Assembly (NCBI GenBank): GCA_030650275.1 | Contig: JAUSEK010000019.1 | Coordinates: 144 to 64,143 of the forward strand | Length of the DNA stretch: 64,000 nucleotides | Direction of reading: 5' to 3' | From: Candidatus Omnitrophota bacterium | GTDB lineage: Bacteria > Omnitrophota > Gorgyraeia > Zapsychrales > Fredricksoniimonadaceae | Shown: piece after piece, positions 34,488-54,996 of the stretch | Numbering within the stretch: the stretch's first letter is position 1 | How the letters are laid out: each line of letters begins with the position of its first letter | Notes under the pieces: model-generated | Told to the model about the DNA's origin: nothing | Seen by the model: the letters and a program-made list of their open reading frames with translations, nothing else | Database searches by the model: none | Position numbers and translations under genes: made by a program

Positions 34488-34523
34488 TTGTCATTCCCGA
34501 ATGCTTTTGTCGGGAATCCAGAC
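34488..34523. repeat. Second copy of the ATTCCCGAATGCTT.TGTCGGGAATCCAGAC hairpin unit, in the moaA leader.
   Basis: Read directly. Confidence 0.75.
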
Positions 34524-34526
34524 ACT

Positions 34527-36605: not shown

Positions 36606-36660
36606 GAAATAGTAATTCTGATCAATAATGCCCAGCGGATTTGTTAAGGGAGAAAGCATA

Positions 36661-39445: not shown

Positions 39446-39448
39446 AAA

Positions 39449-42400
39449 ATGTTCAACGAGGAATCATTAGAAAAAGCCGTCATTGAGCTATTTGCAGGGC
39501 AACAAATCCCGCACTGCAAAGGTGAGACCATTCATAAAGAAATGAGTGATGTCTTGCTTCGCGATGATTTGAAGAAGTTTTTGCTCAATCAATACGCTGC
39601 TGAAGATATTACTCAGCAGGAAATTGAAAGCATCATCCGTAGTTTAGACTTTTTTCCAAGTTCAGCTTTATACGAAAGTAATAAAGCCATCATAAAATTA
39701 TTGGCAGATGGCTTTACAATAAAGAGGGCAGACCGTAGTAAGAAGGATCTCCGCATTCATCTGATAGACTTTGTAACAGACAATAACATTTATAAGTTCG
39801 TGAACCAATTGGAAATATTAGGTTACGAAAAACGTATCCCTGACGGCATTGTTTATATCAATGGCTTGCCATTAGTAGTAATCGAATTTAAAAGCGCAGT
39901 AAAAGAAAATACCACCGTCAAAGATGCCTACACTCAGTTAACGGTTCGCTACCGTAGGGATATTCCAGAGTTGTTTAAATACAATGCTTTTTGTGTAATA
40001 AGCGATGGCGTGAATAACAAAATAGGCTCTCTTTTTGCTCAATATGATTTCTTTTACGCATGGCGGAAAGTAAATCCTGAAGATGAAGCGGTAGATGGCA
40101 TCAATTCGCTTTATAGCATGGTGCAGGGCTTGTTTAACAAACAGCGCCTAAAAGATGTAATTCGTAACTTCATTTATTTCCCTGACACAGCTAAAGACGA
40201 TATAAAGATTGTATGCCGCTATCCGCAATACTACGCCGCTAACAAATTGTTTGATAGCGTTAAGTTGAATATGCGACCACACGGAAGCGGAAAGGGCGGA
40301 ACTTATTTCGGGGCAACTGGCTGCGGCAAAAGTTTCACCATGCTATATCTCACGCGGTTGCTCATGAAAAGCCCACACTTTGCAAGCCCGACCATTGTAT
40401 TGATCACCGATCGAACTGATTTAGACGACCAGCTATCAACACAATTTACCAATGCCAAAAGTTTTATTGGCGATGAAAATGTCATCAGCGTAGAAACCCG
40501 TGCCGAACTTAAAACACTGTTACAGAACAGAAAAAGTGGCGGTGTTTTTCTTACCACCATTCACAAGTTTACAGAAAGCACTGAGTTGCTCACCGATAGA
40601 TCAAATGTGATTTGTATTTCAGACGAAGCGCACCGTTCACAGATCAACCTTGACCAAAGAATAGAAGTTACCGATCAAGGGGTAGCTAAGAAATTCGGCT
40701 TTGCCAAGTACCTGCACGATTCTTTACCACAGGCTACTTACGTGGGCTTCACCGGTACGCCTATTGATGCAACGCTCGATGTGTTTGGTGAGGTAGTAGA
40801 TGCCTACACCATGAAGGAATCAGTGAACGATGAAATTACCGTTAGAATCGTTTATGAAGGCAGAGCCGCTAAAGTATTACTCAATGAGCAGAAACTGAAA
40901 GAGATTGAAGAATATTACAAGAAGTGTTCGGAAGAAGGCGCGAATGAATATCAGGTGGAAGAAAGTAAAAGAGTCGTTACGCAAATGGAAGTTATTTTGG
41001 GCGACCCAAAGCGATTGAAATTAGTAGCCGCAGACTTTGTGGAACATTACGAAAAGCGCATTGAAGAAGGATCTACCATAAGAGGCAAAGCAATGTTTGT
41101 AGCCAGTAGCCGCCCCATTGCTTACGATTTGTATAAAGAAATCATTGCCTTACGACCAGAGTGGGCTGAAGCAAAAGAATGCGAGGAAGGCGTAGAATTG
41201 ACTGCAGAAGAAAAGAGAGAGCTAAAGCCCATTGAGAAAATCAAAATGGTCATGACTCGGCATAGAGATGATCCAAAAGAGCTGTATGACATGCTTGGAA
41301 CAAAAGAAAGCAGAAAAGAGCTAGACCGGCAATTTAAGATTACAAAATCGAATTTCAAAATTGCAATAGTCGTTGATATGTGGATAACCGGCTTTGATGT
41401 TCCATTTTTAGATACTATGTATATCGATAAGCCCATTCAGCAACATTCATTGATACAAACAATCTCCCGAGTGAATCGTGTGTACGAAGGCAAAGAAGCG
41501 GGATTGGTGGTGGACTACATTGGAATTAAAACCAATATGAATATTGCTTTGGCGAAATATACAAAAGTTGGTAGTGATGATTTTGAAGATGTAGGCAAAG
41601 CGGTTGTAATTGTAAAAGATCAGCTGGACTTGCTTGCAAAGCTCTTTCACAAGTTTGATCTACAACCTTTCTTTAACGGGACAGCAATGCAGCAGCTAAG
41701 TTGCCTTAATAACGCAGCAGAGTTTGTCCAGTTGACAGATGAAATGGAAAAGCGTTTTATTGGATTAACCAAGAAGTTACGATCTGCGTATAGCCTTTGC
41801 TGCAGCAGCGAAGGGCTTAGCGCTAAAGAAAGAGACCACATCCATTTTTATTTTGCCGTTAAAGCCATTATCCACAAATTAACAAAAGGCGATGCGCCCG
41901 ATACGGCACAGATGAATGACAAAGTGAGGGAAATGATTAAAGAGGCCTTGATCAGCGATGGCGTAGAAGAGATTTTCAAGCTAGATAAGAACGACCCAAA
42001 GAACAGTACAGATATTTTCAGCGATGAATACATGGCAAAGATAGAGAAAATTACATTGCCGAATACTAAAATCAAGTTGCTTCAGAAATTGCTGATTCAA
42101 GCAATTGAGGAATTTAAGAAGGTAAACAGAATTAAAGGTGTTGATTTTACCAAGAAGATGAAAAAGCTGGTTGATCTGTATAATGAAAGAAAAGATTTTC
42201 AGGCAATGCAAAGCGATGTGTTGGACGATGTAGCCGAACAGTTTGCGAAGCTGTATAGAGATTTGCAGAAGGAGCGCAACTCATTCATGGATTTAGGAAT
42301 TGATTTTGAAGAAAAGGCATTTTATGACATTCTGAAAGCCATTGCACTGAAATACAAGTTTGAATATCCCGAAGATAAATTGATTGTACTTTCACAAGCA

Positions 42401-42589
42401 GTTAAAAAGATTGTGGACGATAAAGCGAAATATACTGATTGGTCTCATCGTGATGACATCAAAGCAGAATTAAAGATGGATTTGATTTTAGTTCTCGCTG
42501 AACATGGTTACCCCCCAGTACCCAAAGATGAAGTTTTTAAAGAAATATTTGAACAGGCCGAGAATTTCAAGAAATATAGTGAATTATAA
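39449..42589 (+). CDS. hsdR: Type I restriction enzyme, R (endonuclease/translocase) subunit.
   Basis: A 1046-aa protein with an N-terminal PD-(D/E)xK-like nuclease region, SF2 motifs (GSGKS..., DEAH in ISDEAHRSQ), and a C-terminal helical domain. Confidence 0.9.
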   Translation: MFNEESLEKAVIELFAGQQIPHCKGETIHKEMSDVLLRDDLKKFLLNQYAAEDITQQEIESIIRSLDFFPSSALYESNKAIIKLLADGFTIKRADRSKKDLRIHLIDFVTDNNIYKFVNQLEILGYEKRIPDGIVYINGLPLVVIEFKSAVKENTTVKDAYTQLTVRYRRDIPELFKYNAFCVISDGVNNKIGSLFAQYDFFYAWRKVNPEDEAVDGINSLYSMVQGLFNKQRLKDVIRNFIYFPDTAKDDIKIVCRYPQYYAANKLFDSVKLNMRPHGSGKGGTYFGATGCGKSFTMLYLTRLLMKSPHFASPTIVLITDRTDLDDQLSTQFTNAKSFIGDENVISVETRAELKTLLQNRKSGGVFLTTIHKFTESTELLTDRSNVICISDEAHRSQINLDQRIEVTDQGVAKKFGFAKYLHDSLPQATYVGFTGTPIDATLDVFGEVVDAYTMKESVNDEITVRIVYEGRAAKVLLNEQKLKEIEEYYKKCSEEGANEYQVEESKRVVTQMEVILGDPKRLKLVAADFVEHYEKRIEEGSTIRGKAMFVASSRPIAYDLYKEIIALRPEWAEAKECEEGVELTAEEKRELKPIEKIKMVMTRHRDDPKELYDMLGTKESRKELDRQFKITKSNFKIAIVVDMWITGFDVPFLDTMYIDKPIQQHSLIQTISRVNRVYEGKEAGLVVDYIGIKTNMNIALAKYTKVGSDDFEDVGKAVVIVKDQLDLLAKLFHKFDLQPFFNGTAMQQLSCLNNAAEFVQLTDEMEKRFIGLTKKLRSAYSLCCSSEGLSAKERDHIHFYFAVKAIIHKLTKGDAPDTAQMNDKVREMIKEALISDGVEEIFKLDKNDPKNSTDIFSDEYMAKIEKITLPNTKIKLLQKLLIQAIEEFKKVNRIKGVDFTKKMKKLVDLYNERKDFQAMQSDVLDDVAEQFAKLYRDLQKERNSFMDLGIDFEEKAFYDILKAIALKYKFEYPEDKLIVLSQAVKKIVDDKAKYTDWSHRDDIKAELKMDLILVLAEHGYPPVPKDEVFKEIFEQAENFKKYSEL

Positions 42590-42647
42590 AAATAGGGTCC
42601 TATTTTAAGTGCCAGTTCTTTTATTAATTTATTAAGGATTTTTTATT

Positions 42648-42676
42648 AGAAATAGTAACAGGCGCTAATTTTTTTA
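42648..42676. repeat. Junction motif AGAAATAGTAACAGGCGCTAATTTTTTTA.
   Basis: A near-identical copy at 49313-49340 directly abuts the mazG-like start codon. Confidence 0.7.
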
Positions 42677-42733
42677 AGATGAACACTATGAGTGTTTAGC
42701 GAAATGGACGTGATTTGGTAAGGGCGGTATAAA

Positions 42734-44380
42734 TTGGGAACGAAAATAAGAAAATATAATCTCAAGGAACTCGTTCGTTTTATCGAGTCGAAGCATGTTG
42801 CTGTCCCAGAGTTTCAGCGCGGGTTTGTCTGGAAAACGGGACAGGTTAAGAAGCTTTTCGATAGTCTCATAAAACAATATCCTGTGGGTAGTTTTATTCT
42901 TTGGGAAACAAACAAGCATATCGATGCCCGAACTTTGGATGGTGAAAAATTGCCTCAAAGAAAGTTCTTGATATTAGATGGGCAACAGAGAATGGCAAGT
43001 ATATATTACCTTTGTCGCCAAAAGAAATTTGTTGAGCCTCGTGTGAAAGATAAGTTTCATGAAACCTGCGATAATCGCGAACGTCAAGTTATTGACTTCG
43101 AGAAGTTTTATATCGACAGAAACAAAAAGGGACCGGTTCTGGAATATGCTCGGGAAAGTTCGTGTGAATTGGATTTTAATAAATTCTCTCGTCTCGTTCG
43201 AAATAGCTATCGGGTGCCTGTAATAACTATTTCATTGAACGACTATCACCACGCGATAGAAGTATTTGAGCGTATCAATCAGGCGGGCACTCGTATTTCA
43301 ACGGAATCAATATTCTTATCAGAGACTTGGAATCAGCATTCCAATATTGGTAAAATTTTGAGAACATGGAAAAGGCAAAACAGAGAAGCTCTTACCAGCG
43401 GAATAGACACTGTTATCTTTATACATGTTTTCGCGATAATTTTACAGTTAGAGAAACGGAAGCAACAAACAGTCGAGATAGGAATTACTACGCTAAAAAA
43501 GATAGCCGAAGAAGTTCATCAGCATACAAGTAACACATATAACAAGATTTTTAAAGATGTCGTAGATTCAGTGGCCCGCGCAGTTACTCATTTAAAAGAA
43601 GAATATGAGATCGTTTCCCTTAGCGATTTGCCTTCGCAGACAATGATTACGATTTTAGCGGTATTTTCTTACTATCGAAAAAGAGCACCTACTAAGAAGC
43701 AGGCAACTGAGTTGAGAAAATGGTTCTGGCGATCGTCACTTTCTAATCGGTATATCGGTTCTGGCTACTCGCAACATATTGGCATGGATGCTAAGAAGAT
43801 GCGTGATTTGGCTGAGCATAATCGCGACTTGAAAATCTCCCCAGCGGATATAAAAATATTTGCGAAAGTTAAAGGTGTTGATATACGTGCTGGTCGTTCG
43901 ACTTACCGTAATATTATTAAACAGGCTCTTTGGCAACAAACCCCAATTTTTATAAATGGAAAAAAGATAAGTCGGGATGATGTTGAATCCGGCCAGCATA
44001 AACCAGAAGATGACCATTTTTTCCCTTATGATTTATATCGAAAAGGTATCTCTGGACAAGAAATCAATAATATATTGAATATTCATTTTTTGAATGGAGA
44101 CGAGAATAGCAGAAAAAAGAATCGTTTACCATCGGAGTGGTTACAAGAACAGATTGACGATATTGGAGCAAATGCTAGCATAGTCGAAAAATATTTTTCC
44201 AGTCAGCTGCTGCCATTTAGAAATTTGAAAGATCTTCGCAGATATGAGCGTGCCTTTAAAGAAAAAGGGATGCGGGCGAAACAGAGTAAGTTTGCGCGTA
44301 GTTATCAGAGTTTTTTATGGCGTAGATTTAAGCTGTTTGAAAAAACGCTTAATCGCCTACAAAATGGCCGATTGAAATAG
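42734..44380 (+). CDS. GmrSD-family protein (DUF262 N-terminal ParB/Srx-like NTPase domain plus DUF1524 His-Me finger C-terminus). A type IV modification-dependent restriction endonuclease-like protein.
   Basis: The DUF262 hallmark DGQQR (ILDGQQRMASIYY) and a C-terminal H..EDDHFFPY His-Me-finger-like motif. TTG start per the track; AT-rich. Confidence 0.75.
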   Translation: MGTKIRKYNLKELVRFIESKHVAVPEFQRGFVWKTGQVKKLFDSLIKQYPVGSFILWETNKHIDARTLDGEKLPQRKFLILDGQQRMASIYYLCRQKKFVEPRVKDKFHETCDNRERQVIDFEKFYIDRNKKGPVLEYARESSCELDFNKFSRLVRNSYRVPVITISLNDYHHAIEVFERINQAGTRISTESIFLSETWNQHSNIGKILRTWKRQNREALTSGIDTVIFIHVFAIILQLEKRKQQTVEIGITTLKKIAEEVHQHTSNTYNKIFKDVVDSVARAVTHLKEEYEIVSLSDLPSQTMITILAVFSYYRKRAPTKKQATELRKWFWRSSLSNRYIGSGYSQHIGMDAKKMRDLAEHNRDLKISPADIKIFAKVKGVDIRAGRSTYRNIIKQALWQQTPIFINGKKISRDDVESGQHKPEDDHFFPYDLYRKGISGQEINNILNIHFLNGDENSRKKNRLPSEWLQEQIDDIGANASIVEKYFSSQLLPFRNLKDLRRYERAFKEKGMRAKQSKFARSYQSFLWRRFKLFEKTLNRLQNGRLK

Positions 44381-44388
44381 GATTCAGT

Positions 44389-44492
44389 TGGAAACAATTT
44401 CACAATCATAAGGATGTGGCGTTGTCCCTAGTTTTGCAGGCGGCGGAGGTGCTGGAGCATTTCTAGTGGAAATCGCCGCAAGAGGTCAAGAA
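44389..44492 (+). pseudogene. Degenerate fragment of a MazG-like gene, corresponding to residues ~20-54 of the intact copy at 49341, with an in-frame TAG.
   Basis: About 88% nucleotide identity to 49397-49502. Its translation KQFHNHKDVALSLVLQAAEVLEHF*WKSPQEVK compares with the intact KQFHNHKDVALSLVLEAAEVLEHFQWKSPQEVK. Confidence 0.8.
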
Positions 44493-44766
44493 AGTAGCTA
44501 AGAGTTTACTTGCGACGCTTAAACATGGGCAGTGAGTGCTTGATTGGTGTAAAAGACAACAAACGCGAGCAGCTGTCCGTGTGGCTATTGGCCGGGTCTC
44601 GGATGAATTATCGCAACGTTATGGTTGCGATCTTTTTGAATCAAAGTGTGAGGTCATTTATTGACACATTTATGATAGTTATTTTGGTGAGGGAAGAAGT
44701 TATTTTGTAAGAAATTGAGTTTTTATATGAAAAATGCAACAGACCTAAACTATATAAAGACTCGCG

Positions 44767-47700
44767 ATGATTCCTAAATTCAACAAAGGCGACCAGGTTC
44801 AGCGTACAAACGACTCCAGTCGTATCGGGGTTATTGTTGATGTGGATGTTTTACATGGTGGAATTCAATATTATAAAGTTTTTTTTGATGGAGAAGAACG
44901 TCCGGTTCTTTCAGAGTTTGATATTCGGCCCCACATAGAGGGGGTTTCGCCAGTGGATGTCTTAAGGCTGGGGCACTTGGGATTTTTCGAAGAATTTCAG
45001 TTGAACATCCTTTATCAGAAGCTTTCTAAGATTAATATCCTTACAAATAACCTTTATTCATTTAATGCCTCCCGAACCAATTTTTATCCGTATCAGTTCA
45101 AGCCACTTCTCAAGTTTCTGGATTCTTTCAACAATCGCGTTCTTATTGCGGATGAGGTAGGTCTTGGTAAAACTATTGAGGCGGGTCTTATTTTTCAGGA
45201 ATTAAAAGCGAGGCAAAATCTCCAACGGATTCTTGTCGTTTGCCCGTCAGGTCTGAAAGACAAATGGAAGATGGAAATGGAACATCGCTTTGGGGAAGAA
45301 TTTAATATTTGGCGTCGGCCAGACCTCATGCGTTTCTTGGATAAGCTTGAGGAGTCTTATGCGGTTCAGTCCTTGAAGGTTATTATTCCACTTGAAACTA
45401 TTCGCTACAGGGGTGTAGTTGAACGAATAGAAGAGATCGGTCCTGCATTTGATTTGGTGATCATTGATGAAGCGCATCATATGCGAAATCAGACAACGCT
45501 GAACCATAGGACTGGAAAAGTTTTGAGCGATTTTGCAGATGCTATGGTTATGTTAACGGCAACCCCAGTGCAAATGGGGAATAGAGATCTTTTTAATTTA
45601 TTGCATATTTTAGATGATGAGAACTTTTCAAATCATCAAGTTTCGGAGGAACTCTTTACTCAAAATGAACCTGTTGTCTTGGCCCAAACATGTTTGAGCC
45701 ATATTCCCGCAGATCTTGAAAGAGCTGGGGAGTTGTTAACCGATTTTTTTGCGGATTTAGATAAGGCAAGGAAGCCTTATCAGCATAATCTTTGTTTGGA
45801 TGTTATTGATCGGATGAAGCAGCTCAAGGCAGTTGATCAGCGATTGCCAGAATATCGTCGCCAGTTAGTCGATATTCAGAGGAATGTGTCGGAATTAAAC
45901 TTTCTAGGACATATTCTAAATCGCACTCGCAAGAGAGATGTTAAAGAAAAGATCGTGTTACGACAGGCTAAAACTGTGAAGGTGGATCTATCTGATAAGG
46001 AGAAGGTGTTTTATAAGGCTGTAGAGGCCTTTGTGCGGGCGGATGCAAAGAGGCGGGGCATTGATTCAAGGGTGATTGGATGGATGCTGATCAATCCGTT
46101 AAGACGTACGGCTTCGTGTATATCAGCTATGGTGGAGCATTATAAGCAGCATTTAGATAATTCTGAAGTTGAGGATGATGATCCTCTAGATGATGAGAGT
46201 GATGAGAAAACAGAGTCAAAAAGCTCAGGTTTTGAATTGGCGCGTAATAATCTTTTGGAAATTATTAACACTTGGGGAGGGTCTACTGAAGATACGAAAT
46301 TTCAAAAGTTTATGGAGGCTATTCAGAAGTTAAAGAAAGAGGATGGGAAGCTCAAAATAATGGTTTTTGCTTTTTATAAGGCAACCTTACGTTATCTTTC
46401 TAAAAAATTGAAAGCTGCGGGGATAAAAAATCTTATTATTTCAGGAGACGTGCCTTATAAAGAGCGAGCGGCATTGATTAATCAATTTAAGGACGAAAAT
46501 TCTTCTATAGAAGTGTTGTTGTCATCAAGGGTCGGCAGTGAAGGTTTAGATTTTCAATTTTGCGATACCATGGTTAATTATGATCTTCCATGGAACCCAA
46601 TGGAGGTTGAGCAGAGAATAGGACGCCTTGATCGTATTGGGCAGCGCTCCCAAAAGATCAGAATTTATAACATGTCTTTGGCGGATACAATAGAGGATCG
46701 GGTGCTTATGCGGCTTTATGAACGGATCGGGATTTTTGAACGTTCGATAGGAGGATTGGAGCCTATTATGGGCGCGCAGATCCAGGAACTTGTTACTGAG
46801 GTGTTGACCAAAGAGCTTTCTGCTAAAGAGCAGGAGGATCTTGTTGAACGCAAGGCATTGATTTTGGAGAAGAAAGAACGGGAGATGCGTGAGCTGGAGG
46901 AAAAATCGGCAAAATTTATTGGGGTAGATACTTATTTTGAAGATGAGATTGCAAGAATACAGAAAACAAGAAGATATATAACTCCGCAGCAGTTGAAAAA
47001 GTTTATTCTTTATTTTTTAGAGCGGTTCTTCCCAAAGACTCGCTTTGAATATTCCGAAAAGACTTGCCTAGGGAAGATTGTGGCTGATCAAGCGTTGCAA
47101 GGTTTTATCTCAAAATGTGAAAAGTCACATGATTTATCAAGATTTTATTCTACGGATGGGGTTGAAATTACCTTTGATTCTGATACGGCTTTGCAGAATC
47201 CCAGTATAGAGTTTCTAAATAATACGCATCCACTAACAGCTCTTATCTTAAGGTATTATCAAGAAAATCCGATTCATCACAATAATGCTTATTTTGTTAA
47301 ACTTGATACGAATATTGCGCCTAAGGGGAAATATTTTTTTTATGTATTCCGACTTAAAATCGAAGCGGCGCGACACACCAACACGATTGAGACAGTTTTT
47401 ATTGATGAAACCCTTAATGAGATTTGCCCAGGAGAAGATTCCGAGGTTTTGTTAGGTGAGATGCTAGAGAGCGGGCGGAGATCGGAAGATGGAAGCTCTT
47501 TTTCTATTGATCCAGGTTATTTGGATCAGTCCCATCGTATGGCGCTAGGGACATTTTTAAAGAATAAGGAACAAAGAAAATCTGATGCGGAACGGAGCAA
47601 TAACCTTTTGATTGAAGGTCGAGTAGCCAGTATTCGATTAAATTTTGAAAAGAAGATTAAACAGAAACAGAAATTATTAGAAAGGGGTATTCAGGGGAAT

Positions 47701-47847
47701 AAGAAAAAGAGTTATCTTACGATGCTAGAGGGGGAGATTAGGAAATATAGAAATCAAATGGAGGCTGGCATCACTTTGGAGGAGACCAAACGGAGCGTCA
47801 GTTGTTCGCATGTTGAAATTGCTGCAGGGATTCTGGAGATCGTGTAG
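44767..47847 (+). CDS. SNF2-family (Swi2/Snf2, RapA/HepA-like) helicase/translocase of 1026 aa with an N-terminal Tudor/SH3-like domain.
   Basis: Motif I DEVGLGKTIEAG, motif II DEAHHMRN, and a helicase-C region (..LSSRVGSEGLDFQFCDTMVNYDLPWNP...QRIGRLDRIGQ). The N-terminus KGDQVQR...RIGVIVDV....YYKVFFDG resembles the RapA N-terminal Tudor-like fold. Confidence 0.85.
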   Translation: MIPKFNKGDQVQRTNDSSRIGVIVDVDVLHGGIQYYKVFFDGEERPVLSEFDIRPHIEGVSPVDVLRLGHLGFFEEFQLNILYQKLSKINILTNNLYSFNASRTNFYPYQFKPLLKFLDSFNNRVLIADEVGLGKTIEAGLIFQELKARQNLQRILVVCPSGLKDKWKMEMEHRFGEEFNIWRRPDLMRFLDKLEESYAVQSLKVIIPLETIRYRGVVERIEEIGPAFDLVIIDEAHHMRNQTTLNHRTGKVLSDFADAMVMLTATPVQMGNRDLFNLLHILDDENFSNHQVSEELFTQNEPVVLAQTCLSHIPADLERAGELLTDFFADLDKARKPYQHNLCLDVIDRMKQLKAVDQRLPEYRRQLVDIQRNVSELNFLGHILNRTRKRDVKEKIVLRQAKTVKVDLSDKEKVFYKAVEAFVRADAKRRGIDSRVIGWMLINPLRRTASCISAMVEHYKQHLDNSEVEDDDPLDDESDEKTESKSSGFELARNNLLEIINTWGGSTEDTKFQKFMEAIQKLKKEDGKLKIMVFAFYKATLRYLSKKLKAAGIKNLIISGDVPYKERAALINQFKDENSSIEVLLSSRVGSEGLDFQFCDTMVNYDLPWNPMEVEQRIGRLDRIGQRSQKIRIYNMSLADTIEDRVLMRLYERIGIFERSIGGLEPIMGAQIQELVTEVLTKELSAKEQEDLVERKALILEKKEREMRELEEKSAKFIGVDTYFEDEIARIQKTRRYITPQQLKKFILYFLERFFPKTRFEYSEKTCLGKIVADQALQGFISKCEKSHDLSRFYSTDGVEITFDSDTALQNPSIEFLNNTHPLTALILRYYQENPIHHNNAYFVKLDTNIAPKGKYFFYVFRLKIEAARHTNTIETVFIDETLNEICPGEDSEVLLGEMLESGRRSEDGSSFSIDPGYLDQSHRMALGTFLKNKEQRKSDAERSNNLLIEGRVASIRLNFEKKIKQKQKLLERGIQGNKKKSYLTMLEGEIRKYRNQMEAGITLEETKRSVSCSHVEIAAGILEIV

Positions 47848-49309
47848 AGTTTTTTTTCAAAAAAAGTCGTTATCTGGTCAGAAAGTCAAACCGGAAGATC
47901 AGACCGAAAGTCCTGCCGCTGCGCCTGCAATTATCAAGACATCATCTGGGAAGCTTCCCATTCATGTTGGTATTGATTTTGGAACAAGTTGTTCTAAAGC
48001 GTGTTATCAAATCCAAGATGGAAGGGAGAAGGTTTACTTAATTGATTTTAAACATCAGTTAAAGTCTTTTCCTTCATACGTTATTCCTTCAGTTCTTATT
48101 GGTGATGAGCAAAATCGGATATATATAGGTGAAGAGGCAGGTGAGGCTGTAGAAGCAGGAAAATGGGGATTAGGGTTAAGAAATTTTAAAACACTCTTAG
48201 CGTCAGTTCAGAATGAGGATTTTGTTGACAAAGTTTCCGCATCTCATTTCAAGGAAAATTTACAACTATTAGGTCTTGATAAGGAGGGCGTTGGAGTATC
48301 AGAAGTTACGTCTCTTTATGTTGCCTATATGATGCACCGATGCAGAGATTTTCTAAAGCGTCAATATGTAGGCAGAGAATTGCATATTAATTATAATGTG
48401 TGTATTCCTATCGATTATGCTGAAGATAATCTCGTAAGAAAAGACTTTGAAAAAATGTTGGCTGTAGCTCAGGAACTCTACAGATTTTGGGAACGAGAGA
48501 AAGGTGAGTCGCGCAGTTTATTACGTCTTGCCAGTGAATTAAAAAGCCAGTGTGTATATGATGAAACTCAAATGAATGTTTTTGCTATTCCTGAGGCTGT
48601 CGCAGAACTGGTTGGTTATCGTAAGTCTGCGGATAGGGAGGCAGGCTTGTACGCTCTTATTGATATTGGTTCGGGAACAACCGACGTATCGATTTTTAGA
48701 CTTGACCGAGGTTTGAAAGAGCGTGCTGTGTGGTTGTCATCAGATGCTATACCTATGGGCATGTATCAATTAGAGAAATTAGTTGTGAAAGCTTTGAGGA
48801 AACAAGGACATGATGATTCGTTGGGTGAAGTTTATAGAGCTTTCGAGAATTTTAAGGAAATTTCAACCGGGCTTCAGGAGGATGTGTTCTTAAGAATAAG
48901 AAAGAGGATTAGGGCTTTTATTAGAAGTGATGAGTATAAAAGACCTTGGAGATCTGCTCATATCAAATTGAGGAAACAAAGAAGAGAGAGTTTGGATGAT
49001 ATAAAGATTGTTTTTCTCGCAGGAGGAGGAGCAAAGATTGCCTTGGCCAAAGGCATGAATTTTCTTTTTAGTTCATCGCCGCTTGCTTCATCGGCGGTTT
49101 CTAAAAAGCCCTATAACTTGTCAGCGTTGTCCTGTTCTCCCAATCTAGAGGGTGCTTTGGTTTCTGATTTTTGGCGCCTATCCGTGGCTTATGGATTAAG
49201 TTTTCCAGCACCAAAGTTGGGAGAATATAAGCTTCCGAAAGATTTTCCAGAGGATAATCCGCCTTCTTTACCAATACAGGATTGGCCGGATAGGGATGAT
49301 ACGCGGTAA
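47810..49309 (+). CDS. Hsp70/actin-fold (ASKHA superfamily) ATPase of 499 aa. Its start overlaps the 3' end of the SNF2 gene by 38 nt.
   Basis: Phosphate-1 motif HVGIDFGTSCSKA (compare DnaK IGIDLGTTNS), a connect motif VFAIPEAVAELVGY, and phosphate-2 ALIDIGSGTTDVSIF (compare DnaK DLGGGTFDVS). Confidence 0.75.
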   Translation: MLKLLQGFWRSCRVFFQKKSLSGQKVKPEDQTESPAAAPAIIKTSSGKLPIHVGIDFGTSCSKACYQIQDGREKVYLIDFKHQLKSFPSYVIPSVLIGDEQNRIYIGEEAGEAVEAGKWGLGLRNFKTLLASVQNEDFVDKVSASHFKENLQLLGLDKEGVGVSEVTSLYVAYMMHRCRDFLKRQYVGRELHINYNVCIPIDYAEDNLVRKDFEKMLAVAQELYRFWEREKGESRSLLRLASELKSQCVYDETQMNVFAIPEAVAELVGYRKSADREAGLYALIDIGSGTTDVSIFRLDRGLKERAVWLSSDAIPMGMYQLEKLVVKALRKQGHDDSLGEVYRAFENFKEISTGLQEDVFLRIRKRIRAFIRSDEYKRPWRSAHIKLRKQRRESLDDIKIVFLAGGGAKIALAKGMNFLFSSSPLASSAVSKKPYNLSALSCSPNLEGALVSDFWRLSVAYGLSFPAPKLGEYKLPKDFPEDNPPSLPIQDWPDRDDTR

Positions 49310-49340
49310 AAAGAAATAGAGTGACAGGCGCTAATTTTTA

Positions 49341-49688
49341 ATGGCAGAAATCAAAACAATCACCGCAAAAATAAGAAAATTCCGCGATGAGCGGGATTGG
49401 AAGCAATTCCACAATCATAAGGACGTGGCGCTGTCTTTGGTCTTAGAGGCGGCAGAAGTGCTGGAGCATTTCCAGTGGAAATCGCCGCAAGAGGTCAAGG
49501 AACATGGCGAGGCCTGCAGGTCCGAGATCTCGGATGAGCTGGCGGATGTTGCCGTGTATTTATTTGAACTCGCGGATAATCTCGGGATCGATTTGTCAAA
49601 GGCCATTGATATCAAAATGAAGAAAAATGCCCTGAAATACCCGGTTGAGAAAGCCAGGGGCAGGCATACGAAATACAACAATCTTTAG
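49341..49688 (+). CDS. MazG-like nucleoside triphosphate pyrophosphohydrolase (small all-alpha NTP-PPase).
   Basis: EEA.E..E motifs in ..LEAAEVLEHF.. and ..ELADVAVYLFELA.. characteristic of MazG/HisE-type NTP-PPases; 115 aa. Confidence 0.75.
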   Translation: MAEIKTITAKIRKFRDERDWKQFHNHKDVALSLVLEAAEVLEHFQWKSPQEVKEHGEACRSEISDELADVAVYLFELADNLGIDLSKAIDIKMKKNALKYPVEKARGRHTKYNNL

Positions 49689-49692
49689 GTAG

Positions 49693-49775
49693 AAATTAAA
49701 CATTTGAAAATCGCGCCAGGAATCATTAGAATCATCCTTAGTCAAGCAGGGCTTCCCCGGCCGTAGTCTGTTTGA
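49693..49775 (+). promoter_or_regulatory. Repeat unit R1: near-consensus sigma70 promoter (TTGAAA-17nt-TAGAAT, with -35 at 49704-49709 and -10 at 49727-49732) plus a conserved leader GTCAAGCAGGGCTTCCCCGGCCGTAG, upstream of the ORF6N gene.
   Basis: Read directly; a 17-nt spacer. Copies R2 (50399-50482) and R3 (51801-51900) match at roughly 85-95%. Confidence 0.65.
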
Positions 49776-49828
49776 CAAAAATCCCCTGTAGTAAATCTAT
49801 TAACTTTTAATCTACAAGGGGGTATTCC

Positions 49829-50371
49829 ATGTTCAAGAAATCAGAAACTGTCGCATCGGTCGAGATCATTCAAAACAAGATCTTTTTGATCCGGGGCCGG
49901 AAGGTCATGCTGGATAGGGATCTAGCGGAATTATACGGAGTGCCGACAAAAAGGTTTAATGAACAGGTCAAGAGAGGCATAAAGAGGTTTCCAGCAGATT
50001 TTATGTTTCAATTGACCCAGGAAGAATATGAAAACTTGAGGTCGCAAATTGCGACCTCAAGTTGGGGAGGAAGACGGTACCTGCCTTATGTATTTACCGA
50101 TTACGGTGTAGCAATGCTTTCCAGCGTGTTAAATAGTGACCGAGCTGTTGAGGTTAATATACAGATCATGCGGGCTTTTGCCAGATTGAGGGAGATGATT
50201 ATTTCCCACAAAGATCTGGCTCGCAAGATCGAAGACCTGGAGCGGAATTTTAAAGACCATGATAAGAAGTTTGTTGAGGTTTTTGAGGCGATCAGGCGGT
50301 TGCTGCAGAAAAAAGAAGAGCCGCCCAAGCCCAAGATACCGATCGGGTTTCATCCGCCAATGAAGCCGTAA
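49829..50371 (+). CDS. ORF6N-domain protein (phage antirepressor-type DNA-binding N-domain) with a coiled-coil C-terminus.
   Basis: IRGRKVMLDRDLAELYGV.TKRFNEQVKRGIKRFPADFMFQLTQEE matches the ORF6N domain consensus. Confidence 0.75.
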   Translation: MFKKSETVASVEIIQNKIFLIRGRKVMLDRDLAELYGVPTKRFNEQVKRGIKRFPADFMFQLTQEEYENLRSQIATSSWGGRRYLPYVFTDYGVAMLSSVLNSDRAVEVNIQIMRAFARLREMIISHKDLARKIEDLERNFKDHDKKFVEVFEAIRRLLQKKEEPPKPKIPIGFHPPMKP

Positions 50372-50398
50372 AAAATATAAAACTCCAGCCGTTGGTTG

Positions 50399-50482
50399 GA
50401 GAAATTAACATTTGAAAACCGCGCCAGGAATCATTAGAATCATCCTTAGTCAAGCAGGGCTTCCCCGGCCGTGATCTGCTTG
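50399..50482 (+). promoter_or_regulatory. Repeat unit R2: TTGAAA (50412-50417) -17nt- TAGAAT (50435-50440) plus the conserved leader, upstream of the AbiEii gene.
   Basis: Read directly. Confidence 0.65.
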
Positions 50483-50617
50483 GTAAATTCCCCTCCAAGT
50501 GAGGACATTGATACGATTCTTCAAGGTGCCAATTTGGCTCCCCATGCGGAGCATCAGTCTTCTTGATACAATTTGACAATACTACTTATGAGTAGTATAC
50601 TTTCAGTGAGGCCAAAG

Positions 50618-51313
50618 ATGAAAAACAAGATCGCCTATATAAAGAAAGAGCAGAAAAGAATCACCGGATTAGTCGCTCGCAAATTCAAGGACTATTACTT
50701 GACCGGCGGCACGGCGCTGGCTTTTTATGTCCGGCACCGTTTCTCGGAGGATTTAGATTTTTTTAGCCAAAAGTATGACAAGAAAACACCGGAAAAGATC
50801 ATGGCCTATATTTCCCAAGAAACCGGATTTGATTATCAACTGGATGCCGAGCAGGATGATCCTAAATTAATTCCGATGAAGGTTTATTTTATGGAATTAA
50901 AGGGTGGTGAAGTATTGAAGATAGATTTTGTTAAGGATTATGTCGCAAATGTCCATCCAATCAAGAACGGTATGCACTCCATGGATGATATTTACTACAG
51001 GAAGATCTGTGCGGCGATAGGGGGCCAGGAAAAACAAGGCGAGGCAGGGCAGGTCGTGGCCACGGGCCGGCGAAGCGTTAAAGACCTGTTTGATATTTAC
51101 TATCTTTCTTCTCATTACAAGTCGTTGGCGGATTTTTTCTTTGAATATTTTGCGTACAACCATACAGAACGCCTTGAAGCCTGGTACAGAGGGTTTGACC
51201 GGACAGAAGCAAAATTGGCTTTGATGGACCTGGTTCCCAAGGTGGACACGGGGAAGGTTTTTAAGTATTTGGATGGGCAAATATTAAAACTGATCCCTGG
51301 AAAACTGTTGTGA
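50618..51313 (+). CDS. AbiEii/AbiGii-family nucleotidyltransferase toxin (DUF1814).
   Basis: GGTALAFYVRHRFSEDLDFF matches the AbiEii NTase motif (GG[ST]AL ... R.S.D[IL]D). The start was taken at MKNKIAYI (50618). Confidence 0.7.
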   Translation: MKNKIAYIKKEQKRITGLVARKFKDYYLTGGTALAFYVRHRFSEDLDFFSQKYDKKTPEKIMAYISQETGFDYQLDAEQDDPKLIPMKVYFMELKGGEVLKIDFVKDYVANVHPIKNGMHSMDDIYYRKICAAIGGQEKQGEAGQVVATGRRSVKDLFDIYYLSSHYKSLADFFFEYFAYNHTERLEAWYRGFDRTEAKLALMDLVPKVDTGKVFKYLDGQILKLIPGKLL

Positions 51314-51320
51314 GGCATCT

Positions 51321-51788
51321 ATGAAGATCAATTGGTTGTGGGACACAACGCTGAACAAGGTGCGGGTCAAGAAGATCCTGCATAATGAAAGAGACCCGCG
51401 TTTTTACATTTATGCGGAGAAGTTGTTTTCCCGTGTCGACGATCCCAAGGAGGCCTTTAGTTATGTTTCTAAAGAAGCTTTTTGCCGTCAATGGCCTGTT
51501 GTCAGAAAAAGGATCGCAAAAGATGCCTGGGCAAGAGAGAGGGCGGGTTTCTGGCAGGGTATCTATGAACAGACGTTGAGTATCCCGCCAGAGCGATTAA
51601 GTGTTGCCCAACGGATCAAAGAATTAAGGGTCCATATGGGGTATACCCAAAAGGAAATGGCTAAAAGATTGGGTGTTATTCAGCAGTACGTTTCCCGTTT
51701 GGAAGCCGGCCGGGAGAATTTGACCTTGGATACCTTAAAACGGATAGCCCAAGTTTTTGATAAAGATCTGATCGTTCAATTGAATTAA
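51321..51788 (+). CDS. XRE-family HTH protein (C-terminal HTH_XRE, novel N-terminal domain); candidate cognate antitoxin or regulator for the upstream AbiEii.
   Basis: The C-terminus QRIKELRVHMGYTQKEMAKRLGVIQQYVSRLEAGRENLTLDTL is a classic HTH_3. The gene starts 8 nt after the AbiEii stop. Confidence 0.6.
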   Translation: MKINWLWDTTLNKVRVKKILHNERDPRFYIYAEKLFSRVDDPKEAFSYVSKEAFCRQWPVVRKRIAKDAWARERAGFWQGIYEQTLSIPPERLSVAQRIKELRVHMGYTQKEMAKRLGVIQQYVSRLEAGRENLTLDTLKRIAQVFDKDLIVQLN

Positions 51789-51800
51789 TTCGAGTGGCAC

Positions 51801-51900
51801 GTTATGAGGTTTGGGTGAGGGAAGTTTTTGAAAACTGCACCAGGAATCATTAGGATCATTCTTAGTTAAGCAGGGCTTCCCCGGCCATAGTTTGCTTGCT
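51801..51900 (+). promoter_or_regulatory. Repeat unit R3: TTGAAA (51828-51833) -17nt- TAGGAT (51851-51856) plus the conserved leader, upstream of the Bro-N gene. It is preceded by the motif TTATGAGGTTTGGGTGAGGG.
   Basis: Read directly. Confidence 0.6.
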
Positions 51901-51945
51901 CCCCGTAGCACAAGCGTTATAATCTATTAAACAGAAGGGGGCATC

Positions 51946-52788
51946 ATGTCTCAAGAAATGATCTCAACCAAAATTGCCATTTTTAAGGGTAAACAGATCA
52001 GGAGAACCATTCATAATAATGAATGGTGGTTTTCAGTTGTGGATATCGTAGGGTCTCTGACGGATAGTGAAAATCCCAGGGATTATTGGTATAAAATGAA
52101 GGTTCGTGAAAAAGATGATGCGGGTGTTGAACTGTCGACATTTTGTCGACAGTTGAAATTAGTCGCACCGGATGGCAAGAATAGGGAAACTGACTGCGCT
52201 GATACAGAGGGCATATTCCGTATTATCCAATCCATCCCATCACCCAAAGCTGAACCTTTTAAGCGTTGGCTGGCCAAGGTCGGTTATGAGCGTATTCAAG
52301 AGATAGAAAATCCCGAGCTTGCGGCTAAACGGATGCGGTTGCTCTATAAGCTAAAGGGATATAGCGATGACTGGATCGAAAAGCGCATGCGCGGCATTGT
52401 CATCCGGGAAGAATTAACGGATGAATGGCAGAAGCGTGGCGCACAGGAAGACAAAGATTACGAGGTTTTGACCGCCGAAATAGCCAAAGCCACGTTTGGC
52501 ATCACTCCTAGTGAGTACAGGAAGTTAAAAGGGTTAAAGCGTGAAAATCTGCGGGATCATATGGATGATTTTGAGCTGATCTTTACGATGCTGGGAGAGC
52601 GTTCTACAACGGAAATCCACCGCACCGAAGATTCCAAAGGTATGGCTAAATTAAAAGATGACTCAAAAGCCGGTGGGGACATTGCCGGGGGCGCCCGCCA
52701 ACAGTTGGAAAAAAGGCTTGGGCGGTCGGTTGTTTCAAAAGAGAATTATTTAAATAAGCCACAGAATAAGAAGTTGCCTAGGAAATAA
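51946..52788 (+). CDS. Bro-N domain protein (phage antirepressor-like N-domain) with a charged C-terminal region.
   Basis: The N-terminus ..FKGKQIRRTIHNNEWWFSVVDIVGSL.. fits the Bro-N fold consensus (F.F....iR.....e.wF...Dv...LG). Confidence 0.6.
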   Translation: MSQEMISTKIAIFKGKQIRRTIHNNEWWFSVVDIVGSLTDSENPRDYWYKMKVREKDDAGVELSTFCRQLKLVAPDGKNRETDCADTEGIFRIIQSIPSPKAEPFKRWLAKVGYERIQEIENPELAAKRMRLLYKLKGYSDDWIEKRMRGIVIREELTDEWQKRGAQEDKDYEVLTAEIAKATFGITPSEYRKLKGLKRENLRDHMDDFELIFTMLGERSTTEIHRTEDSKGMAKLKDDSKAGGDIAGGARQQLEKRLGRSVVSKENYLNKPQNKKLPRK

Positions 52789-52794
52789 AAAAAT

Positions 52795-53016
52795 ATGTCT
52801 AAACTACAGGATTTGATCGAATGGGATTATTTGGGGTCGCATTATAGCGTGTACATCAAGCATTTTACGGACGATGACGGCAAGAGGGGGATGACGATGG
52901 TTTTTGAGGACGTGACCCGGGAAAAGGTCACGGAAATGACCGTTCCCTCGCGCAAATTCCCCGCGTTCCTGAAAGCGGTTAACGGCGGTGCAGAGCCGTA
53001 TAGAGGGATCTTTTGA
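52795..53016 (+). CDS. Hypothetical small protein.
   Basis: A 73-aa ORF 6 nt after the Bro-N stop; no motif recognised. Confidence 0.3.
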   Translation: MSKLQDLIEWDYLGSHYSVYIKHFTDDDGKRGMTMVFEDVTREKVTEMTVPSRKFPAFLKAVNGGAEPYRGIF

Positions 53017-53203
53017 GGTCCACCTATTTTTACCCGGCAATTTGATTGACAGGGGGTTGCCCGGTGATATATTGAAAACAGATGTATCGGAGAGTCCTGT
53101 GTTGAAGGGGGAACCTGGACTATAAAAAAAGTAAAACCTTCGCAAGGTCAGATGGCTGACTCGGCGGGGTTTTTTTATTTATATCAAACGAAAGGACAGG
53201 ATT

Positions 53204-53953
53204 ATGGAAACGGGAAAGATCTTCAGGGATTCACAGATCATTGTTTTGGGTGTTTGCATTGCGGTGGCCACCGTCGCGGCGAGTTTGATATTGGCCAAAG
53301 GGTTTATGGCGGTGGTCAAATTCAACCAGCAGGTGGTGACGGTGACCGGGTCGGCGCAAAAGAACATTAAAAGCGATAAAATTGTCTGGAAGGCGATCTT
53401 CAGCCGCCGCGAACGCGACCTGCCCAGCGGCTATAAAAAGGTCCAGGAAGACCTGGATAAGGTGAAAAAATATCTGATGAACCAGGGTGTGGTGGATAGC
53501 GAGATCATTATTCAGCAGATCGTCAGCGACAAAGTATACAAGAAAACTTCGCAGGGCAAGGACACCAATGAAATTGATTATTACGCCTTGATCCAGCCCA
53601 TTGAGGTGTGGTCCAATCAGGTGGATAAGGTGACGGCGGTGTCGCGCGGCTCAACGGAGCTGATCAATCAAAACATCGCCTTTGAATCCGGCGCGCCGGA
53701 GTATTACTATACAAAACTCGACGAACTTAAGATTGAAATGCTGGCGTTGGCCACCGAGAACGCGAAACGGCGGGCCGAGAACATGGTCAAGGCCACGGGC
53801 AATAAGATCGGGTTTATCCGTTCGGCGAGGATGGGGATATTCCAGATCACGCCGGTCAATTCCACCGAGGTTTCCGACTACGGCGTGAATGACACCACAT
53901 CGCTGGAGAAAAAAGTGACGGCGGTGGTGAATGCGGGGTTTAGTATTGAATGA
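53204..53953 (+). CDS. SIMPL-domain (DUF541) periplasmic or membrane-anchored protein.
   Basis: An N-terminal TM/signal anchor, then ..VTVTGSAQ.., the typical first strand of SIMPL domain proteins. Recognised by overall pattern. Confidence 0.5.
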   Translation: METGKIFRDSQIIVLGVCIAVATVAASLILAKGFMAVVKFNQQVVTVTGSAQKNIKSDKIVWKAIFSRRERDLPSGYKKVQEDLDKVKKYLMNQGVVDSEIIIQQIVSDKVYKKTSQGKDTNEIDYYALIQPIEVWSNQVDKVTAVSRGSTELINQNIAFESGAPEYYYTKLDELKIEMLALATENAKRRAENMVKATGNKIGFIRSARMGIFQITPVNSTEVSDYGVNDTTSLEKKVTAVVNAGFSIE

Positions 53954-54016
53954 AAATCTTTGTGAAAACGCATCCCAAGGCCAGGAAAATACAGGTGCTT
54001 GCCAGGGATGCGGCCC

Positions 54017-54075
54017 ATTATGAGGTTTGGGTGAGGGCCAGGCGGTCATTGAGATCGATGATTAGTTTACCAAAA
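54017..54075. repeat. Degenerate fourth copy of the left part of the R repeat (ATTATGAGGTTTGGGTGAGGG ... TCATTGAGATCGATGATTAG). It lacks the promoter hexamers and abuts the murB stop.
   Basis: Read directly. A fifth partial relative (TTTTGGTGAGGGAAG) lies at about 44680-44695. Confidence 0.55.
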
Positions 54076-54996
54076 CCCCTGCTCATTGGCTCCGGGTGCG
54101 TTTTGGAACTTGCCGGCGAAGCGCACTTCGCGGTTTAAGACCAGATCAAATTTTGCCTTGACCAGCAGGGCCATTTTCAGCGATAGGTCGTGCACGTTTT
54201 GCGCTGTGCAGTGAGGGCCTTTGATGATGATATTGGCGTGTTTTTCAAAAATTTGGGCCCCGCCGACTTTTAAGTTTTTCCCGCCCGCCTGCTCCAAAAA
54301 CCATCCCGCGGCCTGACGGCGTTCGGCTTTGGAGGTGGGCTCAATGTTACGGAAAAAACTGCCGGCGCATGGATGGGTGACCAGGTCAGGATGCTTTTCA
54401 GCGCGCGTTTTCAGGATGGCGGCGCGTTCCGTCGCCAGTGCAACACAGTCGCCCGGTTTGAGGGCAAAGGTGACGTCCAGGACGATCTCGCCGGTTTCTT
54501 TCAGGCGCGAGTGGCGGTAAGCGAAGGCAAAGTAGTCCGGACCGACGGTCTTGGCATTGCCTTTGTGGTCCAGGATGGTCGCGGATTTAAGCACATCGCC
54601 CACTTGTTTGCCCCAGGCGCCGGCATTGCCCACCACAGCCCCGCCTACGGTGCCTGGAATGCCCGTGGCGTAATTTAACCCTTCCAGGCCCTCTTCCACC
54701 ATGTTCAGGGCCAGCGCGTCCAAAGACGTGCCGCCGGACACTGTCACGTCATCGTTGCTGCGTTTGATGAGCGGGGTAGGACTGACAAAACGCACCACCG
54801 CAGCGTCCAGGCCCTCGTCCGAAACAACCAAATTGGACCCGCCGCCGATGAGCACGAACGGTGTTTTGTCAGCCGCCAGTTGTTTCACGGCCTGTTTGAC
54901 TTCATCAGGCGTTTGGCAATCCAGCAAATACCGGCAAGGGCCGCCCAGGCGGAACGTCGTATAATCCGCCAGCAGGGCGTCGGGGATGCTTTTCAT
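54067..54996 (-). CDS. murB: UDP-N-acetylenolpyruvoylglucosamine reductase.
   Basis: LADYTTFRLGGP N-terminal FAD-binding motif; 309 aa. Confidence 0.85.
   Translation of the reverse strand: MKSIPDALLADYTTFRLGGPCRYLLDCQTPDEVKQAVKQLAADKTPFVLIGGGSNLVVSDEGLDAAVVRFVSPTPLIKRSNDDVTVSGGTSLDALALNMVEEGLEGLNYATGIPGTVGGAVVGNAGAWGKQVGDVLKSATILDHKGNAKTVGPDYFAFAYRHSRLKETGEIVLDVTFALKPGDCVALATERAAILKTRAEKHPDLVTHPCAGSFFRNIEPTSKAERRQAAGWFLEQAGGKNLKVGGAQIFEKHANIIIKGPHCTAQNVHDLSLKMALLVKAKFDLVLNREVRFAGKFQNAPGANEQGFW

Follow-up and report, generated by a model that had tools for sequence, protein, structure and literature searches.

The window analysed here is a 64,000-nucleotide (nt) stretch of DNA from a Candidatus Omnitrophota bacterium (contig JAUSEK010000019.1, positions 144 to 64,143 of the forward strand). 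Within 2.2 kb it carries three direct copies of one non-coding repeat, here called R, each at the head of a separate gene cassette. A repeat search recovered a single family with three copies of 86 nt (49694-49779, 50402-50487 and 51818-51903), the second and third being 91% and 77% identical to the first. With conserved flanks the units extend over 49689-49790 (R1), 50400-50497 (R2) and 51796-51909 (R3); unit length is 86-105 nt and pairwise identity 77%-91%. The 17-nt core GCAGGGCTTCCCCGGCC, allowing up to three mismatches, occurs three times in the 64 kb against an expectation of 0.22, a count reached in none of 100 shuffles, and the -10 region CCAGGAATCATTAGAATCATCCTTAG occurs three times against 0.00 expected. 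A longer, 19-nt form of the core, AAGCAGGGCTTCCCCGGCC, is invariant across R1, R2 and R3 and was reproduced by no shuffle. No fourth copy was found in the window by an nhmmer profile of six copies that ran from the spacer through the CCCC box. An earlier note on this DNA had described three promoter-plus-leader copies, each heading its own module, and the repeat search, core scan and shuffles confirm that description. Its conserved leader holds in part: the core is shared, and downstream of it R2 reads GTGA, not (G/A)TAG. Small open reading frames (ORFs) across R were considered on either strand and rejected: on the plus strand the frame lacks a start codon, and on the minus strand most differences among the copies are non-synonymous. 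The translated R frames gave no Pfam match.

49689-49790, + strand: R1, with the -35 hexamer at 49704-49709, the -10 hexamer at 49727-49732, a predicted start at about 49739-49741, the 5′ hairpin at 49741-49776, the invariant core at 49744-49762 and the CCCC box at 49783-49786
49783-49822, + strand: R1 leader hairpin CCCCTGTAG...CTACAAGGGG, in which the CCCC box is predicted to pair with the ORF6N Shine-Dalgarno sequence AAGGGGG at 49816-49822
50400-50497, + strand: R2, with -35 at 50412-50417, -10 at 50435-50440, a predicted start at 50447-50449, hairpin at 50449-50484, core at 50452-50470 and CCCC box at 50490-50493
51825-51909, + strand: R3 without its DUF167 fragment, with -35 at 51828-51833, -10 (TAGGAT) at 51851-51856, a predicted start at 51863-51865, hairpin at 51867-51898, core at 51868-51886 and CCCC box at 51901-51904

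The array starts at a mazG-like gene, whose product is identical to MDO8675480.1 from a Candidatus Omnitrophota metagenome-assembled genome, and continues through three cassettes, all on the same strand. The earlier identification of the downstream genes as ORF6N, AbiEii and Bro-N is borne out by Pfam.

49341-49688, + strand: mazG-like gene, the conserved left anchor (Pfam PF12643, E=2.9e-20)
49829-50371, + strand: cassette 1, ORF6N, candidate defence gene PDC-S05 (Pfam PF10543, E=7e-37; PADLOC, E=5e-63)
50573-50601, + strand: the AbiEii module's own promoter, TTGACA-17-TATACT, an 11/12 match to consensus
50618-51788, + strand: cassette 2, AbiEii nucleotidyltransferase (50618-51313) and HTH_3 protein (51321-51788) (Pfam; PADLOC AbiEii)
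51946-52788, + strand: cassette 3, first gene, Bro-N, candidate PDC-S13 (Pfam; PADLOC, E=7e-119)
52795-53016 and 53204-53953, + strand: after Bro-N, an ORF of 73 amino acids (aa) and a SIMPL/DUF541 gene

Each R unit contains a promoter-like pair of hexamers. TTGAAA-17-TAGAAT, at 49704-49732 in R1 and 50412-50440 in R2, matches the consensus at 10 of 12 positions, and TTGAAA-17-TAGGAT, at 51828-51856 in R3, at 9 of 12; the earlier note had read these hexamers correctly, and they lie in the right position and orientation upstream of genes. The same hexamers are present in L024a, L047a and L046, copies of R from related genomes. Both hexamers, A2 and T6 of the -10, a spacer within 16-18 nt and a placement upstream of and co-oriented with a gene are all as found in sigma-70-type promoters. 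The unit end is about 54 nt from the start codon of ORF6N (ATG at 49829), 136 nt from that of AbiEii (ATG at 50618) and 46 nt from that of Bro-N (ATG at 51946). R1-R3 are homologous, so that their common hexamers are a matter of descent and conservation and not of three independent chance events; for the same reason, finding them three times is no independent evidence that they act as a promoter.

The cassettes lie in a low-GC defence hot spot bounded by two core genes.

34488-35543: moaA, the left core gene
35550-54066, + strand: low-GC defence hot spot, 18.5 kb, between moaA and murB (GC content 33%-49%, against 52%-58% in the flanks)
54067-54996, convergent: murB, the right core gene

Exact-match scanning of metagenome contigs with the 19-mer returned four true relatives (L024, L026, L032 and L038), and protein look-ups added L046-L050 and L053-L056. 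All are the same moaA...murB locus, with core genes 87%-93% identical to the window at the DNA level; the contigs come from groundwater and sediment sites (samples of SRR13727527, ERR2108712 and JGI metagenome Ga0209515). Among species-representative genomes the 19-mer scan gave 17 matches, all by chance, in GC-rich genomes and with flanks at background identity. No R copy was found in viral contigs (exact-match scans) or in phage and plasmid records (distant blastn), and none lies downstream of the more distant mazG homologues L041-L045 (83%-86% aa identity). Two contigs, L040 and L049, end inside the mazG-linked R, and L018, from the same sample as L040, ends inside Bro-N; R repeats may break short-read assemblies, leaving R arrays under-represented in metagenome contigs.

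In every R-bearing lineage a full R copy directly follows the mazG stop codon, a junction that was aligned in three lineages. What lies beyond it differs. The moaA-murB interval measures 18.5 kb here, ∼4 kb in L024 and ∼7.9 kb in L047, and the systems it contains are different each time: the same core genes flank different defence content, as at a core defence hot spot. ORF6N follows mazG-R in the window and in L046. In L024, the leader up to the ATG, the leftover start of ORF6N, is followed by a CopG-type toxin-antitoxin pair, a metallophosphoesterase and, farther on, a degenerate R and small opposite-strand ORFs. In L047, mazG-R is followed by a Gp49/helix-turn-helix (HTH) toxin-antitoxin pair, a truncated R (-10 to core) and the same small opposite-strand ORFs as in L024, and then by an intact DUF167 gene, the core again, an inverted Gp49/HTH pair and murB. 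Upstream of mazG stand DpnI in L024 and an SLFN-like helicase in L047. No ORF of L024 or L047 carries an integrase or transposase Pfam domain, and several have no Pfam match at all.

These comparisons indicate that R marks module boundaries, since gene content between R copies differs among related genomes; as the earlier note held, the modules that it heads are functionally different. They speak against the modules being mobile units that carry their own expression signal, as R was found, in the collections searched, at one hot spot of one lineage only. Given this restriction, R belongs to the landing platform, the mazG-R junction, and not to the incoming genes: it is a locus feature of this lineage and does not travel with ORF6N, AbiEii or Bro-N.

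The likely ancestry of R is apparent from several gene relics at the locus.

51796-51824, + strand: DUF167 fragment, codons ∼22-31 (A-R-Y-E-V-W-V-R-E), fused to the left end of R3
53950-54066, + strand: ‘R4’, a DUF167 pseudogene abutting the murB stop codon, without core and without promoter hexamers
44388-44493, + strand: mazG gene fragment of 106 nt, 87% identical to 49397-49502, just after a GmrSD-like gene
44683-44697, + strand: ‘R0’, a possible remnant, TTTTGGTGAGGGAAG, resembling the DUF167-derived left end of R3

L038 and L047 encode an intact 72-aa DUF167/YggU protein (PF02594, E=3e-18), and in both the 19-nt core begins two bases after its stop codon. The DUF167 fragment of R3 is identical to the intact L038 gene at 22 of 22 nt and to window positions 54018-54037 at 20 of 20; local alignments of R3 with four DUF167 genes reach z scores of 8-12, and the similarity continues weakly and collinearly towards the -10. 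In the more distant L051, mazG and DUF167 form an overlapping gene pair exactly where R sits in the window. The R3 fusion, the position of the core after the DUF167 stop codon and the L051 gene pair together indicate, by sequence comparison, a DUF167 gene with its 3′ flank as the source of at least part of R. The left halves of R1 and R2 are not significantly similar to DUF167 on their own. The promoter half of R allows two competing alignments, to codons 31-41 or 1-14, neither significant alone; nor is a DUF167 derivation of the middle of R, and R copies lie upstream of the intact DUF167 gene. QSregVF_b, which follows DUF167 in L051 and L052, was tried as a source of the core and right arm and rejected (DNA z of at most 2; protein p 0.1-0.27 for the peptides KQGFPGRDLLG and RKGYPKGLLG; no Pfam match).

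The degenerate relative at 54017-54075 that the earlier note listed is real, and is a piece of the R4 pseudogene without the core. Compared with the intact SIMPL-DUF167-murB ortholog in L053, R4 keeps its first 30 codons and then has three internal deletions; over its first 88 nt it is 97.7% identical to the intact L038 gene. The 62-aa ORF at 53950-54138, which has no Pfam match of its own and was linked to DUF167 through an intact ortholog at related loci, is the same DUF167 gene and contains the relative at 54017. Since the SIMPL-DUF167-murB order also occurs in L053, the SIMPL region may be native and not belong to the Bro-N cassette. The other relative, noted near 44680, is R0, a weak candidate based on 15 nt: it matches at 14 of 15 positions (z 2.8, reached by 12 of 500 shuffles), and the mazG fragment lies ∼190 nt upstream. 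The distance from this fragment to R0 is ∼193 nt, and corresponding points at mazG-R1 are 188 nt apart, which suggests that the two are what is left of an older mazG-R copy ahead of the DrmD-like helicase. The mazG sequences bracket the helicase/actin-like/mazG module, the layout that a Campbell-type insertion or a segmental duplication would leave.

With so many relics present, the R copies could themselves be neutral scars, pieces of a DUF167 pseudogene with its flanking DNA that were spread by segmental duplication or Campbell-type insertions and have no function now. Part of R is demonstrably derived from DUF167, and the mazG fragment at 44388-44493, the deleted DUF167 gene at 53950-54066 and a duplicated murB 3′ end in L038 are further debris of this kind. 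The pattern of conservation makes this explanation very unlikely. From the -35 through the core, 65 nt in all, identity to the window is 98.5% in L024, 95.4% in L047 and 96.9% in L046; for third-codon positions in the neighbouring mazG the figures are 78%, 88% and 86% (Fisher p = 6e-5, 0.08 and 0.015, respectively). That the R centre is, across species-level divergence, far better conserved than neighbouring third-codon positions indicates that R is under purifying selection. In addition, all six full-length copies (R1, R2, R3, L024a, L047a and L046) precede co-oriented genes, and the copies without a promoter half (L047b, L024b, L047c and window R4) precede genes on the opposite strand: the promoter half is kept only before co-oriented genes.

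R may also serve in recombination. As the only sequence common to neighbouring cassettes and lineages, it could act as homology for cassette exchange, and recombination at R would leave each co-oriented cassette headed by its own copy. R2 is closest to the mazG-linked L047a (94.7% over 94 nt, right half included), and R3 shares GCACC and GGCCATAG with L024a; copies within one genome are thus not each other's closest relatives, which fits exchange between lineages. R1 and R2 agree at 65/66 positions up to the right edge of the core, and exactly there their identity drops to ∼60%; three of the truncated copies are broken no more than 4 nt from a core edge (L047b after GGCCGTAG, L047c after GGCCAT and L024b just before AAGC). 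Recombination at R would account for these breakpoints and for the differing blocks, and could be homologous or, at the core, site-specific. Homologous recombination could have brought in R-bearing circles by Campbell-type insertion, or could have exchanged segments between lineages, with R and the core genes as anchors.

Because the breakpoints cluster, an alternative stays in play in which R functions chiefly in site-specific recombination, as an att- or attC-like site whose 19-nt core and hairpin are recognised by an unlinked recombinase, the hexamers being secondary or fortuitous. The 19-mer is identical in 8 of 10 copies compared (L046 has one substitution and L024b is degenerate), the flanks vary, the core lies in an imperfect palindrome, and co-oriented cassettes separated by one repeat resemble an integron array. 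No integrase or transposase domain was detected by Pfam in the island ORFs or the ten flanking ORFs checked, IntI and Phage_integrase included, and no tyrosine or serine recombinase gene was found next to a repeat in the window island. Clusters of attC sites lacking an integrase (CALINs) are known, so IntI is optional for them. In an attC site, R″ (RYYYAAC) and R′ (GTTRRRY) bound an imperfect palindrome that is 57-141 nt long and has extrahelical bases. An assignment of R to attC or a CALIN was rejected: its only palindrome is a 36-nt hairpin within a 100-nt unit, no longer inverted repeat was found within the R units, and the arms GTCAAGC...GCTTGAC (with GTC in R1 and R2, two of three copies, in place of the GTT of GTTRRRY) stand in the order opposite to attC. 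Furthermore, the right half of R is not cassette-specific, a type-B right half preceding three different contents, and conservation takes in the promoter, reaching 45 nt leftwards from the core, farther than a core site needs. A site-specific function as the main role of R is considered unlikely. The missing linked recombinase, the failed attC comparison and the conservation of the whole promoter half favour homology-based exchange.

The leader downstream of the predicted start folds in two places. The predicted transcript would begin at the foot of a 5′ stem-loop, GUCAAGCAG-GGCU-loop-GGCC-bulge-CUGYUUGAC, which is predicted in every copy (-9 to -15.8 kcal/mol). Farther downstream, the CCCC box of R1 is predicted to form the leader hairpin with the Shine-Dalgarno sequence of ORF6N (-29.6 kcal/mol, z -4.2). 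The same CCCC:GGGGG stem is predicted in L024a (z -2.9) and L046 (z -2.3), whose differences from R1 fall in the loop, and the CCCC box of R3 at 51901-51904 is predicted to pair with the Bro-N Shine-Dalgarno sequence at 51935-51941. The arrangement recalls 5′-terminal stabilising stem-loops, for example in the ompA 5′ untranslated region (UTR), and leader hairpins that act against the Shine-Dalgarno sequence: a stem-loop starts at the predicted +1 or beside it, with a C-rich box that is predicted to pair with the ribosome-binding site. Unlike in those leaders, the function here is predicted only, covariation is absent and the loop sequence is invariant. The earlier note had pointed to the GC-rich leader as a possible RNA-level signal; a hairpin is indeed predicted for it, without covariation and without a match to a known RNA family. 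At the gathering score the window gave no Rfam match (and it contains no tRNA), and at E≤5 positions 49600-52000 gave two chance-level matches (E >4), to microRNA and long non-coding RNA models, both outside the R units.

Shared leaders also raise the possibility that R is a cis-regulatory element through which the three cassettes are switched together, either an operator for a shared repressor or a leader RNA that senses a signal such as infection. Candidate operators are the direct repeats GAATCAT-TA-GAATCAT, which overlap the -10, and the invariant GC-rich region from +1 to +25. Full-length copies show little or no variation in the GAATCAT repeats and the 13-nt loop GGCTTCCCCGGCC, a tighter conservation than a simple stem requires; the island encodes HTH proteins, and the leader is predicted to be able to occlude the Shine-Dalgarno sequence. 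Yet R matches no Rfam family even at a permissive threshold, covariation is lacking and no regulator can be assigned. Co-regulation thus appears distinctly unlikely as the principal explanation, although it is compatible with a promoter/leader that also serves in recombination.

The explanation we prefer, with moderate confidence, is that R is a locus-specific portable promoter and leader that also provides recombination homology at cassette junctions. R1-R3 would be paralogous copies of a ∼100-nt, lineage-specific intergenic module of the moaA...mazG-R...murB hot spot, a remnant derived in part from DUF167 and kept because it supplies expression signals. From the hexamers we infer that a near-consensus sigma-70 promoter would start transcripts at the foot of the 5′ stem-loop, which could protect the 5′ end. 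In R1 and R3, translation of the first cassette gene would be damped where the CCCC box pairs with its GGGGG Shine-Dalgarno sequence. Recombination between R copies, whether of one genome or of two, would let cassettes enter, leave or be exchanged. A bolder reading, which we think unlikely, makes R the working part of an integrase-free, integron-like capture platform: a pseudogene-derived recombination site joined to a promoter/leader, from which captured genes would gain their own copy, be expressed and be translationally throttled, the core and loop being recognised by an unlinked recombinase or RNA-binding factor.

Several points weigh against the preferred explanation. Promoter-like 10/12 matches are not rare, with six such sites in 11 kb on both strands, where 25 sites of at least 9/12 compare with 18.9 in shuffles; among so few copies, conservation of the hexamers does not measurably exceed that of the spacer. 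R2 is redundant with the AbiEii promoter, which lies 17 nt upstream of the ATG and is the stronger of the two (11/12 against 10/12), so that R2 is not the sole signal for AbiEii. mazG itself is 91%-95% identical among lineages, above moaA at 87%-88%, and the conservation of R could come partly from recent transfer of mazG-R between them. Four of the six full copies are orthologous, mazG-linked ones, so the association of the promoter half with gene orientation rests on few independent cases. The 5′ hairpin is no more stable than shuffles in R2 (z -1.4) and R3 (z 0.0), and its alignment gives no covariation support, the score being reached by 147 of 500 shuffles; 87.9% of its cells are paired, and the sole double change falls in the poorly aligned degenerate copy L024b. 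Finally, the 13-nt loop does not vary at all, which points to recognition of its sequence more than to a role in structure alone.

The arrangement shares features with several known systems. Analogous to integron arrays and CALINs, small, co-oriented and functionally unrelated cassettes, many of toxin-antitoxin or defence type, are separated by one hairpin-bearing repeat, and cassette content varies among close relatives. Unlike in integrons, R carries the predicted promoter, sits as a 5′ leader and is partly a gene relic, and the array is anchored to mazG, not to attI/Pc. Correia elements of Neisseria are miniature inverted-repeat transposable elements (MITEs) with terminal inverted repeats and TA duplications, dispersed in hundreds of copies. 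Like them, R is a ∼100-nt repeat upstream of unrelated genes that supplies promoter hexamers and places a hairpin in the 5′ UTR; unlike them, it has no terminal inverted repeats and is found at one locus only. Comparison of the unit ends detected neither terminal inverted repeats nor flanking target-site duplications. R was accordingly rejected as a MITE, a Correia element, a repetitive extragenic palindromic (REP) sequence or a bacterial interspersed mosaic element (BIME), there being three copies in 64 kb and the metagenome scan having returned related copies of this locus only.

The core defence hotspots cDHS1 and cDHS2 of Pseudomonas aeruginosa lie at fixed sites between core genes and hold varied defence systems largely without mobility genes (Johnson et al. 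2023, PMC10250203). In the same respects the locus described here resembles them, with a fixed site between moaA and murB and differing defence systems in related genomes. The likeness ends at the internal junctions: the abstract of that study does not mention a repeated promoter/leader there (PMC10250203), and the seams of the R locus are a conserved 100-nt module. Integrase-borne genomic islands can accrete in tandem at a target gene's 3′ end; in defence islands linked to transfer-messenger RNA (tmRNA) genes, a tyrosine integrase is present, the repeats are short, at 14 bp, and the intact target gene lies at the upstream end (PMC12595487). As in those islands, direct repeats delimit successive blocks of defence genes (PMC12595487), and the R repeats, like the island repeats, probably come at least in part from a gene's 3′ end or flank. 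The R locus differs in having no integrase, repeats of ∼100 nt and the intact DUF167 gene (L047) at the downstream end. The R arrangement works like an integron array or a core defence hot spot, with internal promoters such as Correia-type repeats provide, and is a member of none of these families.

Defence islands turn over quickly at fixed hot spots. The locus is a concrete case for studying how genes are inserted and expressed at such sites in the absence of mobile-element genes. If confirmed, R would illustrate a simple route from a pseudogene remnant to a portable promoter/leader and recombination anchor, and would provide a sequence tag for cassette arrays in Omnitrophota metagenomes. 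If the promoter is inactive, the finding shrinks to ordinary recombination scars.

The remainder of the hot spot, upstream of the R-headed cassettes, contains a RelA/SpoT-like gene (PDC-S33), a type I restriction-modification system (hsdM, hsdS and hsdR) and a GmrSD-like gene, then a DrmD-like SNF2 helicase, an actin-like protein and the mazG-like gene (Pfam, PADLOC). In cassette 2, the HTH gene lies downstream of the AbiEii toxin gene, the reverse of the usual AbiEi-AbiEii order. The AbiEii promoter overlaps an inverted repeat of 8+8 nt with a 4-nt centre, ATACTACT-TATG-AGTAGTAT, at 50579-50598, which is probably the autoregulatory operator of the AbiEii/HTH pair. In cassette 3, a near-consensus promoter, TTGACA-16-TATATT, preceded by TG, lies at 53046-53073 upstream of the SIMPL/DUF541 gene.

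L038 has a further kind of junction repeat: ∼25 nt of the murB 3′ end, TTTGTCAAT...ATTACCAAAA, are directly repeated at 1053-1077 and 2143-2170 and flank the DUF167-core-Gp49/HTH block; L024 has a single copy. L038 (228-313, - strand) and L047 also share, next to the truncated R copy (after it in L047), a ∼230-nt GC-rich, hairpin-rich insert that is absent from L024 and the window and matches Rfam Clostridiales-2 below the gathering score (48.5 against 58.6 bits, E=3.6e-10).

The ORF6N coding sequence holds an inverted repeat, AACTTGAGGTCGCAATTTGCGACCTCAAGTT, with a 14-bp stem and a 3-nt loop at 50033-50063. In L046, ORF6N is cut exactly at the centre of this palindrome (L046 ∼880-900) and is followed by a 333-aa ORF without a Pfam match, possibly an unclassified transposase. 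Upstream of the array, at 44767-49309, the DrmD-like SNF2 helicase is full-length (PADLOC DrmD, E=2e-164) and paired with the actin/MreB-like protein, a Pfam cut-off match to MreB-like_C and a PADLOC match to PDC-M61B. No other gene of the DISARM system (defence island system associated with restriction-modification) lies nearby, and the pair may constitute an undescribed two-gene defence module.

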